Shown here one piece after another: positions 58,348 through 63,539 of a stretch of DNA of 64,000 nt. Below the pieces are notes generated by a model. That model was not told the origin of the DNA and did no database searches. It saw nothing but the letters and a program-made list of their open reading frames with translations. The stretch lies in the NCBI RefSeq assembly GCF_056712565.1, contig NZ_CM160072.1; one strand, 5' to 3'. The translations under genes and the position numbers were made by a program. The first letter of the stretch is position 1. Each line of letters begins with the position of its first letter.

Positions 58348-59850
58348 ATGCTGAAAAGGAAAAAAGTAAAACCGATTACCCTTCGTGATGTCACCATTAT
58401 TGATGACGGTAAACTGCGTAAAGCCATTACCGCAGCATCACTGGGTAATGCAATGGAATGGTTCGATTTTGGTGTTTATGGTTTTGTTGCTTACGCATTA
58501 GGTAAAGTTTTTTTCCCGGGGGCTGACCCCAGCGTGCAGATGGTTGCTGCACTCGCCACTTTCTCCGTTCCCTTTCTGATTCGACCGCTTGGCGGGCTCT
58601 TCTTTGGTATGTTGGGCGATAAATATGGTCGCCAGAAGATCCTCGCTATCACTATTGTGATTATGTCGATCAGTACGTTCTGTATTGGCTTAATACCGTC
58701 CTACGACACGATTGGTATTTGGGCACCGATTCTGCTGTTGATCTGTAAGATGGCACAAGGTTTCTCGGTCGGCGGTGAATATACCGGGGCGTCAATATTT
58801 GTTGCGGAATACTCCCCTGACCGTAAACGTGGCTTTATGGGCAGCTGGCTGGACTTTGGTTCTATTGCCGGGTTTGTGCTGGGAGCTGGCGTAGTGGTGT
58901 TAATTTCGACCATTGTCGGCGAAGAGAACTTCCTCGATTGGGGCTGGCGTATTCCGTTCTTTATCGCTCTGCCGTTAGGGATTATCGGGCTTTACCTGCG
59001 CCATGCGCTGGAAGAGACTCCGGCGTTCCAGCAGCATGTCGATAAACTGGAACAGGGCGACCGCGAAGGTTTGCAGGATGGCCCGAAAGTCTCGTTTAAA
59101 GAGATTGCCACCAAACACTGGCGCAGCCTGTTGACATGTATTGGTCTGGTAATTGCCACCAACGTGACTTACTACATGTTGCTGACCTATATGCCGAGTT
59201 ATTTGTCGCATAACCTGCATTACTCCGAAGACCACGGGGTGCTGATTATTATCGCCATTATGATCGGTATGCTGTTTGTTCAACCGGTGATGGGCTTGCT
59301 GAGTGACCGTTTTGGCCGTCGTCCGTTTGTGCTTCTTGGTAGTGTTGCACTGTTTGTGTTGGCGATCCCGGCGTTTATTCTGATTAACAGTAACGTCATC
59401 GGCCTGATTTTTGCCGGCTTATTGATGCTGGCGGTGATCCTTAACTGCTTTACGGGCGTTATGGCTTCTACCTTGCCTGCGATGTTCCCGACGCATATCC
59501 GTTACAGCGCGCTGGCGGCGGCATTTAATATTTCGGTGCTGGTTGCCGGTCTGACGCCAACGCTGGCGGCCTGGCTGGTCGAAAGCTCGCAGAATCTGAT
59601 GATGCCTGCCTATTACCTGATGGTAGTGGCGGTGGTTGGTTTAATCACCGGCGTAACCATGAAAGAGACGGCGAATCGACCGTTGAAAGGTGCGACACCA
59701 GCGGCGTCAGATATACAGGAAGCGAAGGAAATTCTCGTCGAGCATTACGATAATATCGAGCAGAAAATCGATGATATTGACCACGAGATTGCCGATTTGC
59801 AGGCGAAACGTACCCGCCTGGTGCAGCAACATCCGCGAATTGATGAATAA
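58348..59850 (+). CDS. proP: Osmoprotectant (proline/glycine betaine):proton symporter, MFS
   Basis: 500 aa from MLKRKKVKPITLRD with C-terminal coiled-coil extension. Confidence 0.9.
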   Translation: MLKRKKVKPITLRDVTIIDDGKLRKAITAASLGNAMEWFDFGVYGFVAYALGKVFFPGADPSVQMVAALATFSVPFLIRPLGGLFFGMLGDKYGRQKILAITIVIMSISTFCIGLIPSYDTIGIWAPILLLICKMAQGFSVGGEYTGASIFVAEYSPDRKRGFMGSWLDFGSIAGFVLGAGVVVLISTIVGEENFLDWGWRIPFFIALPLGIIGLYLRHALEETPAFQQHVDKLEQGDREGLQDGPKVSFKEIATKHWRSLLTCIGLVIATNVTYYMLLTYMPSYLSHNLHYSEDHGVLIIIAIMIGMLFVQPVMGLLSDRFGRRPFVLLGSVALFVLAIPAFILINSNVIGLIFAGLLMLAVILNCFTGVMASTLPAMFPTHIRYSALAAAFNISVLVAGLTPTLAAWLVESSQNLMMPAYYLMVVAVVGLITGVTMKETANRPLKGATPAASDIQEAKEILVEHYDNIEQKIDDIDHEIADLQAKRTRLVQQHPRIDE

Positions 59851-59900
59851 GCTGAAACGGATGGCCTGATGTGACGCTGTCTAATCAGGTCAATTGAACT

Positions 59901-59917
59901 CTTAAGGTTCACTTAAT
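59901..59917 (+). promoter_or_regulatory. PmrA (BasR) box CTTAAG-GTTCA-CTTAAT upstream of pmrR
   Basis: Direct hexamer repeat with 5-bp spacer matching the YTTAAK-N5-YTTAAK PmrA consensus, 45 bp upstream of the pmrR ATG. Confidence 0.6.
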
Positions 59918-59961
59918 CTCTGACGCGCATACTCTCCTCCAGGTTAACGGAGGAGAGTGCA

Positions 59962-60051
59962 ATGAAAAACCGTGTTTATGAAAGTTTAACTACCGTGTTC
60001 AGCGTGCTGGTGGTCAGCAGCTTTCTTTATATCTGGTTTGCCACGTACTGA
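59962..60051 (+). CDS. pmrR: PmrR, 29-aa membrane peptide (PmrA-activated regulator of LpxT)
   Basis: ORF MKNRVYESLTTVFSVLVVSSFLYIWFATY with one transmembrane helix, preceded by GGAGGAGAG; its 3' end overlaps the basS 3' end on the opposite strand. Confidence 0.6.
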   Translation: MKNRVYESLTTVFSVLVVSSFLYIWFATY

Positions 60052-61127
60052 TCTTTTTTCAGCCGTATCCAGGCCCGCGTGCCGGAAGTCTCTTGCCGGT
60101 TTTGCAGGAAAAACTGCCCGTGATGCAACTGTGTAATGCGGCTGACAATACTTAACCCCAGACCAATCCCGCCATAACGGCTGTCCATTCGTACAAACGC
60201 TTTACTCAACTCCCCGCATTTACTCTCATCAATACCCGGCCCTTCATCTTCAACGGCCATGACCGCTCCGCCATCTTCTTGCAGCTTAATCATAATGTTG
60301 CTGCCTTGTGGGCTATAACGATGGGCGTTTTCTACCAGGTTTCGCAATAACATCCGCAGCAGGGTTGCATCACCCTGAACGGTGATGTCGGCGGCGCTCT
60401 CTGGCAATAGCAGGGTTTGCTGGCGCTGGTCGAGCATGGTACTAAGTTCGTCATACGAGGGGAGAATGACATCTTCCAGCAGTTTTACATGTTGATAATT
60501 ACCGGAAGAAAATGACTGTCCGGCACGCGCCAGTTGCAGCAGCTGGGAGACGCTCTCCATCATCTGATCAAGTCGTGCCACTAACGGTGCTACATCAATG
60601 TGATGCGTTTTCGCCAGCAGTTCCAGATGCAAACGCACCCCCGCCAGTGGTGTTCGCAGTTCGTGCGCGACGTCAGCGGTAAACAACCTTTCGTTATCCA
60701 GCGTGCTGGTCAGGCGACTGACCAGATCGTTTAACGCCGAAACCACCGCATCGATTTCGAGGGTGGCGCTATGAATGGCAATGGGCGTTAAGTTATCGGC
60801 GGTGCGCGCTTCCAGCTCTTTTTGCAGCTCCGCCAGCGGTCGGGTGATGCGGCGTACCGCCTGATAGCAGATAAATAGCGTCAGGCTAACCATAAAGACG
60901 CCGGGGACAATCAGGCTGGCGACCGCCTCGCGGATCTCACGCATGATGTGGCGATCGTTGTTGCGATTGTCGCGTAGCGCCTGCTCAAACAGCTGAATCT
61001 GCTCGGTACTTTCATGCCACAGCCAGAAGACGCTGATCAGCTCAAACACCAACAAAATGGCCCCGATGGTCAATATCAGCCGTTGGCGCAGCGATATTGG
61101 TCGGCGCAGAAAACGCATCAGATTCAA
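60027..61127 (-). CDS. basS: Sensor histidine kinase BasS/PmrB
   Basis: HAMP and HisKA (HELRTPL) motifs; start could be 61127 or the ATG at 61118. Confidence 0.9.
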   Translation of the reverse strand: MNLMRFLRRPISLRQRLILTIGAILLVFELISVFWLWHESTEQIQLFEQALRDNRNNDRHIMREIREAVASLIVPGVFMVSLTLFICYQAVRRITRPLAELQKELEARTADNLTPIAIHSATLEIDAVVSALNDLVSRLTSTLDNERLFTADVAHELRTPLAGVRLHLELLAKTHHIDVAPLVARLDQMMESVSQLLQLARAGQSFSSGNYQHVKLLEDVILPSYDELSTMLDQRQQTLLLPESAADITVQGDATLLRMLLRNLVENAHRYSPQGSNIMIKLQEDGGAVMAVEDEGPGIDESKCGELSKAFVRMDSRYGGIGLGLSIVSRITQLHHGQFFLQNRQETSGTRAWIRLKKDQYVANQI

Positions 61128-63482: not shown

Positions 63483-63499
63483 ATTAAGCCAACCTTAAG
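63483..63499 (-). promoter_or_regulatory. PmrA (BasR) box CTTAAG-GTTGG-CTTAAT upstream of eptA
   Basis: Minus-strand direct hexamer repeat with 5-bp spacer, 47-63 bp upstream of the eptA ATG at 63436. Confidence 0.6.
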
Positions 63500-63539
63500 T
63501 TCTTAAGGTTGGCTTTTATGTTTGCTTGATTAAGGGGAA

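Follow-up and report, generated by a model that had tools for sequence, protein, structure and literature searches.

A conserved hairpin between proP and pmrR at the mapped 3' end of proP-derived transcripts in Escherichia coli

Rho-dependent transcripts can carry precise steady-state 3' ends that lie right after stable stem-loops without a U-tail, sometimes inside the next gene, and there is evidence that such stems protect the RNA against the exonucleases PNPase and RNase II (Dar and Sorek, 2018; PMC6061677). One such stem-loop candidate lies in front of pmrR, whose small product PmrR modulates LpxT and thereby lipid A charge and polymyxin resistance, with too little or too much of it impairing growth (PMC8129183; PMC11429745). 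The E. coli pmrR promoter has been reported to contain a PmrA box, and deleting this box does away with PmrR-dependent polymyxin resistance (PMC8129183); at another PmrA-dependent promoter, that of pbgP, the -35 element is located inside the PmrA box (PMC4660055). The same stretch of DNA has an entry among non-coding RNAs, as STnc630 (Rfam RF02052), a candidate small RNA from Hfq co-immunoprecipitation in Salmonella that was represented by 27 reads versus 1 in the control, was given as 'nd' (not detected) on Northern blots and has unvalidated coordinates, predicted from cDNA reads, that extend over 166 nt between proP and basS (Sittka, 2008). On the opposite strand, the region downstream of pmrB (basS) has been truncated stepwise in constructs of varied downstream length, cut at predicted stem/loop transitions (Xu et al., 2021; PMC8004244).

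Here we describe how these elements come together at a single palindrome. The window, that is, the whole stretch of 64,000 nt that was analysed, is part of an E. coli chromosome, and its hairpin and promoter stretch is identical to that of K-12 MG1655, with published coordinates being converted as window = MG1655 - 4272154. In this region pmrR, a gene of 29 codons, lies 112 nt behind the highly expressed transporter gene proP and runs against basS, which shares its locus and its strand (minus) with basR and eptA; counted from the basS side, the hairpin occupies positions +69 to +96 of the basS 3' downstream region (Table 1). The spacer also holds a degenerate REP-like hairpin close to proP, which is variable or absent in relatives and lies outside the conserved module.

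Table 1. Features of the proP-pmrR-basS region, in window coordinates
Feature	Position	Strand	Remarks
proP coding sequence	58348..59850	+	transcripts run into the hairpin
Degenerate REP-like hairpin	59863..59891	+	proP-proximal spacer; RNA fold
Rfam RF02052 (STnc630) match	59893..60058	+	182 bits versus a gathering score of 55; model positions 1-166
PmrA (BasR) box, CTTAAG-GTTCA-CTTAAT	59901..59917	+	perfect; read from the sequence
Predicted -10 hexamer, CATACT	59928..59933	+	10 bp after the PmrA box; predicted
Hairpin 5' arm, ACTCTCCTCC	59931..59940	+	takes in the final 3 nt of the predicted pmrR -10 and overlaps the discriminator
Hairpin loop, AGGTTAAC	59941..59948	+	8 nt; its first base, A59941, is the predicted pmrR start
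Hairpin 3' arm, GGAGGAGAGT	59949..59958	+	doubles as the pmrR Shine-Dalgarno sequence
Mapped RNA 3' ends	59962..59964	+	Term-seq, TRS; also the pmrR ATG
pmrR coding sequence	59962..60051	+	29 aa; LpxT modulator
basS (pmrB) coding sequence	60027..61118	-	convergent with pmrR, 25-nt overlap
C-rich, G-poor stretch, then Rho termination coordinate	60160..60314	+	antisense to basS

The palindrome and its conservation

Positions 59932-59957 read CTCTCCTCC-AGGTTAAC-GGAGGAGAG, and the perfect inverted repeat that an earlier note had reported here from the sequence is real, with exactly the letters it gave; its stem, however, comprises 10 bp (59931-59940 paired with 59949-59958) rather than 9, and the RNAfold structure extends it outward by two G-C pairs (59927/28 with 59959/60). 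The hairpin has a minimum free energy of -19.9 kcal/mol on the plus strand and -20.3 kcal/mol on the minus strand, corresponding to a z-score of about -5.5, and none of 200 shuffled sequences folds as well. The identification of the right arm as the pmrR Shine-Dalgarno sequence holds, with the GGAGG core at 59949-59953 lying 8 nt upstream of the ATG; between the end of the 9-bp arm (59957) and the ATG (59962-59964) lie 4 nt. Beyond the stem, the tails read UGCAAUGAAAAA on the plus strand and AUGCGCGUCAGA on the minus strand. As the earlier note had it, neither strand carries a U-tract and the structure is not a canonical intrinsic terminator, and our terminator scan was silent at this site; an A-tract upstream of the stem is likewise absent, as is a U-rich tail.

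Palindromes of this size are not rare. The window contains eight perfect inverted repeats with stems of 10 bp or more and loops of 3-30 nt, and dinucleotide shuffles of the window contain 1.9 of them on average and 5 at most, such that the repeat by itself is within chance expectation (about 2 per window). Because a single repeat is not beyond chance, evidence from conservation is needed, and conservation, as judged from aligned loci, is what gives the hairpin its significance. When one genome per species was scanned with proP as the anchor, pmrR-basS was found behind proP only in Escherichia and Citrobacter, and a scan of metagenomes with a pattern that did not include the stem (PmrA box, 43-47 nt, ATGAAA) added Salmonella-like and other enterobacterial pmrR loci. 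The resulting conservation set consists of 26 distinct pmrR-upstream sequences from several genera. Every pmrR locus found has proP directly upstream; synteny therefore cannot separate a role for proP from a role for pmrR, no pmrR locus without proP having been found.

Across the 26 sequences the nine core pairs are paired without exception (100%), and the two arms have column entropies of 0.11 and 0.04 bits, compared to 1.20 bits in the loop and 0.88 bits in the upstream spacer. The 3' arm is invariant and the 5' arm nearly so, the only substitutions in the core of the left arm being C-to-T changes, which give G.U pairs in the plus-strand RNA and A.C mismatches on the minus strand, so that pairing is kept in plus-strand RNA only. 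The first A of the loop is conserved in at least 90% of the sequences, and the remainder of the loop is free to vary. Stem length differs by lineage, from 10 to 14 bp, with plus-strand energies ranging from -17.8 to -26.1 kcal/mol. Covariation lends the hairpin weak support, as the alignment offers one compensatory pair (an outer A-U to G-C change) and two independent C-to-T changes in the left arm, a result equalled in 30 of 500 shuffles; because there is one compensatory pair only, we rely on the contrast in conservation between arms and loop. Both arms have other reasons to be conserved, one as Shine-Dalgarno sequence and the other as -10 element and discriminator. Among 5409 E. coli records, 5363 match the 41-nt hairpin region at 99% identity or better, whereas just 1073 do so for the surrounding 301 nt.

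The 3' end of the proP mRNA

Two independent maps of RNA 3' ends have an entry at the foot of the hairpin. Term-seq places a plus-strand 3' end at MG1655 position 4332116, window position 59962 (Adams et al., 2021; PMC7815308), and the TRS analysis of RNAtag-seq data yields peaks at 4332117 (window 59963) and 4332118 (window 59964) (PMC10687069). These ends are located 2-6 nt past the stem, whose end is at 59958, or at 59960 if the outer pairs are counted. The authors of the TRS analysis, citing SEnd-seq, state that transcription of the upstream gene terminates within the pmrR coding sequence (PMC10687069). We assign the ends to proP-derived transcripts, because an RNA begun at 59941 would have grown to no more than about 22 nt on reaching them.

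Farther downstream, supplementary file 2 of Adams et al. (2021; PMC7815308) lists the plus-strand position 4332468 (window 60314) with a Rho score of 8.6, a score that uses 800-nt windows which take in the end of proP, and the Rho coordinate is accordingly approximate. Coverage around this coordinate falls from 248 reads upstream to 32 downstream in cells that received no bicyclomycin, versus 400 reads upstream and 443 downstream with bicyclomycin (PMC7815308). Ahead of it, at 60160-60280, the GC skew of -0.5 to -0.62 reveals a C-rich, G-poor tract. Since bicyclomycin evens out coverage across 60314, transcription crosses the hairpin undiminished when Rho does not act, and we conclude that the hairpin is not an efficient autonomous terminator.

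Comparison with other proP genes clarifies the position that the hairpin occupies. Of 23 Enterobacterales loci in which proP lacks pmrR-basS behind it, 20 have a canonical terminator with a GC stem and a U-tract 3-24 nt past the proP stop codon. In E. coli, the terminator scan found no terminator-like site between proP and pmrR, and in several relatives the PmrA box follows proP after only 2-13 nt, leaving the hairpin as the sole structure there. The hairpin thus takes the place of the proP terminator, and it cannot carry a U-tract because the start codon of pmrR comes 4 nt later. The earlier note had offered three options for the palindrome, namely a terminator of proP, a terminator of basS read on the other strand, or a translational control element. 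The first of these is the closest, as RNA 3' ends do lie at the foot of the hairpin, but it is Rho that stops the polymerase, and it does so downstream, according to the bicyclomycin data. The hairpin is best read as defining and protecting the end of the proP mRNA, not as the cause of termination.

Two other sites were considered and rejected. A hairpin inside pmrR (60005-60019, with a U-rich tail) that might have served as a proP terminator corresponds to no end in either map and has a fold short of significance (z = -1.1), and the 'primary' pmrR 3' end at 60151 is preceded by no significant structure (z = -0.4).

Start and translation of pmrR

In each of the 26 distinct pmrR loci the start of the PmrA box is located 60-61 nt upstream of the ATG. 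In the relatives the putative -10 element reads CA[TAC][AG]CT (alignment columns 33-38), with A34 and T38 being invariant. Promoters of the PhoB type have a spacing of 10 bp between the pho-box and the -10 element, equal to that at pmrR. C59940 and A59941 form a conserved pyrimidine-purine start dinucleotide. From the geometry of PmrA box and -10 element alone, the PmrA-dependent transcript of pmrR is predicted to start at about A59941, downstream of the left arm of the hairpin. A start at or before 59931 would be unworkable, because the activator box would then cover the -10 region. A simple sigma-70 scan revealed no promoter in the region upstream of pmrR, a silence that we do not count against this model because an activator-dependent promoter without a -35 element is expected to escape such a scan, and the Cappable-seq supplements hold no entry for the pmrR region.

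Whether an RNA includes the left arm makes a large difference to the predicted accessibility of the ribosome-binding site. In a read-through RNA bearing the left arm, the Shine-Dalgarno sequence has a probability of 0.000 of being unpaired, and 20.8 kcal/mol is needed to open the initiation region, versus 7.1 kcal/mol in an RNA that begins at A59941. The ensemble contains no competing structure that would free the Shine-Dalgarno sequence, and the helix is fully formed in a 151-nt context. The earlier claim that the pmrR ribosome-binding site is sequestered by the palindrome thus stands, structurally, for the proP read-through RNA in which the left arm is present, but would not extend to the PmrA-started mRNA as predicted here. 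On these predictions, the pmrR mRNA itself is unlikely to contain a translational switch.

A five-codon open reading frame on the minus strand, behind the complement of the left arm, was dismissed: two relatives have TTA in place of its start codon, and that codon is nothing more than the -10 hexamer read as its reverse complement.

Taking these observations together, we favour, with a probability of roughly 0.6, a reading in which the hairpin is the protective stem at the 3' end of the proP mRNA, hides the ribosome-binding site of pmrR in read-through RNA and leaves PmrA-started RNA translatable. In this reading, the hairpin forms in plus-strand RNA as transcription leaves proP, and the polymerase passes it and runs on through pmrR into the region antisense to basS, where Rho ends the transcript near 60314. 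Exonucleases acting in the 3'-to-5' direction would presumably trim the proP RNA back to the stem, giving rise to the protected end at 59962-59964. Any proP-derived RNA that retained the pmrR start would have its ribosome-binding site locked in a helix of about -20 kcal/mol, whereas transcripts from the PmrA promoter, with A59941 as the predicted +1, would lack the 5' arm, present an open Shine-Dalgarno sequence and allow PmrR to be made. If the hairpin does insulate the translation of pmrR from the proP transcript, which is strongly osmoregulated, this would explain the strict control of pmrR by PmrA. The favoured reading leaves unexplained the effect that the truncations of Xu et al. (2021) have on pmrB, which is encoded on the opposite strand.

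A similar layout occurs elsewhere in the window. At 63483-63515 on the minus strand, a perfect 14-bp palindrome followed by AAUUUUGCUUUG forms a canonical terminator of adiC, for which a 3' end is listed at about 63479, and the 3' arm of this terminator, CTTAAGGTTGGCTTAAT, is a perfect PmrA box of the eptA promoter. Because the eptA/adiC arrangement parallels that of pmrR and proP, the PmrA promoters at this locus could be built systematically into the 3' hairpin of the upstream gene.

Alternative readings and known systems

The palindrome may also act on the minus strand, as the 3' stem-loop (terminator or expression-enabling element) of eptA-basR-basS, instead of or besides its role for proP. 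When the truncations of Xu et al. (2021) are mapped onto the window, +86 corresponds to 59941 (loop and one arm only), +103 to 59924 (the complete hairpin, no PmrA box) and +126 to 59901 (the complete PmrA box). With the +86 construct lipid A stayed unmodified, the colistin MIC was 0.5 and pmrB mRNA levels were about 315-fold below those of +126, the +103 construct restored modification with Ara4N and pEtN together with an MIC of 4, and the +126 construct reached an MIC of 16 (PMC8004244). The step from +103 to +126 fits the gain of a PmrA-activated pmrR. Because the addition of Ara4N is independent of PmrR, expression of pmrR cannot by itself account for what changes between +86 and +103, and the minus-strand RNA folds as well as its plus-strand counterpart in E. 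coli. A basS 3' structure is therefore possible, though we regard it as doubtful. Against it, no minus-strand 3' end occurs near the hairpin among the ends listed in the two tables, in data in which basS is weakly expressed, and the U-tract is absent on this strand too. The half-life of the pmrB mRNA is the same in the +86 and +126 constructs and the construct with the ORF only has the highest mRNA level of all, unlike what a simple stabiliser would produce (PMC8004244). The experiment is moreover confounded, as the 17 nt added in +103 also bring in the -10 element of pmrR. Finally, C-to-T changes in the left arm weaken the minus-strand helix in 5 of the 26 relatives, most clearly at locus L028 (-11.5 kcal/mol on the minus strand versus -17.8 kcal/mol on the plus strand).

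That the hairpin is an autonomous, non-canonical and Rho-independent terminator of proP would agree with plus-strand 3' ends only 2-6 nt past a strong stem, and with the TRS paper (PMC10687069), which refers to the site as one of transcription termination of the upstream gene, but the missing U-tract and the equal coverage on either side of 60314 under bicyclomycin (443 versus 400 reads) make it improbable. Distinctly improbable, in our judgement, is a control element that operates within the pmrR mRNA, with the left arm transcribed from pmrR's own promoter and a signal opening the Shine-Dalgarno sequence. The right arm is indeed fully paired whenever the left arm is present, and the dosage of PmrR appears to be important, as both deletion and overexpression impair growth (PMC11429745); however, the PmrA box reaches to 59917 and the left arm does not begin until 59931, a transcription start at or before the latter position would be incompatible with a promoter of the OmpR/PhoB type, the conserved -10 motif 10 bp past the box predicts a start near 59941, and a helix of 10-13 bp and about -20 kcal/mol comes with no evident anti-antisequestor. 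Hardly credible, lastly, is the notion that the palindrome functions as DNA, as the operator of an unknown dimeric protein, or that it is a by-product of two conserved sequences with no structural role. Conserved arms around a free spacer would also suit an operator with two half-sites, each arm can be explained independently, and about two such repeats per window occur by chance, yet RNA 3' ends exactly at the foot of the stem indicate that the helix exists in RNA in vivo, the stems of 10-14 bp are extended at either end in a lineage-specific manner, as expected of an RNA helix, asymmetric C-to-T changes are tolerated, and chance is unlikely to have produced, in every genus, a 7-nt discriminator that exactly complements the downstream Shine-Dalgarno sequence.

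More tentatively, and with considerable doubt, the roles could be combined in a three-way shared element: protective stem of proP, promoter-selective gate of pmrR and 3' structure of eptA-basRS. The 5' arm would then double as -10 element and discriminator, read-through from osmotically induced proP would make no PmrR, and the eptA-basRS mRNA would need the 3' structure for normal pmrB expression and polymyxin resistance. If true, this combination would explain the truncation phenotype reported by Xu et al. (2021). The hairpin also offers a concrete reinterpretation of the pmrB 3' downstream region published as critical for colistin resistance. Structure, 3' end and truncation phenotype are each already on record, and in the literature examined they are not connected.

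How does the element compare with known classes? With RBS-sequestering hairpins of 5' untranslated regions, such as riboregulators and RNA thermometers, it shares a Shine-Dalgarno sequence buried a few nucleotides before the start codon; unlike in these, the arm that pairs with the Shine-Dalgarno sequence is predicted to precede the point at which the gene's own transcript begins, and control would depend on the promoter of origin and not on a ligand, temperature or a small RNA. Using SEnd-seq, Ju et al. in 2019 reportedly found bidirectional terminators, which lie between convergent genes and have A- and U-tracts on their flanks. The palindrome resembles them in being perfect, in its position between the convergent proP and basS and in folding equally on both strands, but the flanking A- and U-tracts are absent and the 3' ends, among those listed, are on the plus strand only. 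It is similar to the canonical intrinsic terminators behind Enterobacterales proP genes in position, stem length (the 5-14 bp class) and energy, and differs from them by its lack of a U-tract and of an upstream A-tract and by read-through when Rho is inhibited. The consensus structure of RF02052 contains the proP-pmrR hairpin as an 11-bp stem; that family is filed as a non-coding small RNA, whereas its span of 166 nt takes in the complete coding sequence of pmrR together with the promoter and the PmrA box, and STnc630 is a composite of the proP 3' untranslated region, the pmrR promoter and the pmrR mRNA.

The hairpin is thus a real, fairly ordinary and already catalogued element, which leaves general principles unchanged and provides a tidy local example of known mechanisms. 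The closest counterparts are the stem-loops of Dar and Sorek (2018), with which it has in common a stable stem with no U-rich tail, a precise steady-state 3' end right behind the stem and inside the next coding sequence, read-through up to a Rho-dependent stop and an excess of C over G downstream. It departs from them in that its C-rich tract is about 200 nt away from the hairpin and not adjacent, its 3' arm doubles as Shine-Dalgarno sequence of the gene that follows and its 5' arm overlaps the core promoter of that gene. By this likeness, on which its protection from exonucleases is surmised, the hairpin is best read as a protective stem-loop of the proP mRNA of the type described by Dar and Sorek.

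PmrA promoters and the 3' hairpins of upstream genes

Downstream of adiC we found a perfect 14-bp palindrome, AAGCCAACCTTAAG-AA-CTTAAGGTTGGCTT, followed by AATTTTGCTTTG; it has the appearance of a canonical intrinsic terminator for this gene, and a published 3'-end analysis of E. coli RNAtag-seq data places the primary adiC 3' end nearby (PMC10687069). Upstream of eptA, the 3' arm of the palindrome, CTTAAGGTTGGCTTAAT, doubles as a perfect PmrA box; both PmrA promoters in this region are therefore built into a hairpin at the 3' end of the co-directional gene that precedes each of them.

At the other promoter, the proP-proximal part of the E. coli proP-pmrR spacer holds a degenerate REP-like hairpin. 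The number of REP-like elements in this part differs in E. albertii and Citrobacter, and the spacer ranges from 72 to 157 nt (proP loci L004, L005, L006 and L028); despite this variation, the module from the PmrA box to the pmrR ATG is constant at 61 nt. Among proP loci lacking pmrR (L010-L058), 20 of the 23 other Enterobacterales genera carry a textbook terminator, a GC stem with a U-tract, 3-24 nt after proP, and basS is not next to proP in these loci. Matches to the proP-pmrR spacer also occur at four places on plasmid-typed records, including an 18-kb E. coli record (NZ_CP083870.1) in which the copy of the hairpin region is 92.9% identical and unannotated; such copies could be pieces of chromosome that were misassembled or mobilised.

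Positions of features in the window
Feature	Position	Strand	Remark
REP-like hairpin	59863-59891	+	degenerate
RF02052 match	59893-60058	+	182 bits
Left-arm complement, GGAGGAGAG, and the ORF behind it	59913-59940	-	complement is a strong Shine-Dalgarno sequence
Hairpin within pmrR	60005-60028	+	TGCTGGTGGTCAGCA, then GCTTTCTTTA
pmrR 'primary' 3' end	60151	+	PMC10687069
C-rich, G-poor stretch	60160-60280	+	antisense to basS
Rho site	~60314		PMC7815308
adiC palindrome	63483-63515	-	
adiC primary 3' end	~63479		MG1655 4335633, assuming collinear strains

Candidate elements in and around pmrR

The region matches the Rfam family RF02052, 'STnc630 sRNA', and because the match takes in the PmrA box, the promoter and the entire annotated pmrR coding sequence, the family appears to represent the mRNA of a small protein together with DNA on either side, and not a non-coding sRNA. 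Its consensus structure includes a short hairpin within pmrR that had been flagged as terminator-like; the fold of this hairpin does not reach significance (z = -1.1), and no 3' end is recorded there in either the RNAtag-seq analysis or the Term-seq map. On the opposite strand, a 5-codon ORF (ATG CGC GTC AGA GAT TAA) in the 3' region of basS follows, after 1 nt, the sequence complementary to the left arm of the proP-pmrR hairpin; reverse-complementing the pmrR -10 hexamer yields the start codon of this ORF. This start is ATG, GTG or TTG in most relatives and TTA in two, and on the basis of the latter we regard the pairing of Shine-Dalgarno sequence and ORF as probably coincidental.

The region downstream of pmrR

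A strongly C-rich stretch, its GC skew reaching -0.62, is found a short way upstream of the bicyclomycin-sensitive Rho site published for the + strand (PMC7815308). The 'primary' pmrR 3' end is separate from this site and implies a 101-nt 3' UTR (PMC10687069). The pmrR-basS pair is among the listed convergent 'excludon' pairs (PMC12288877).
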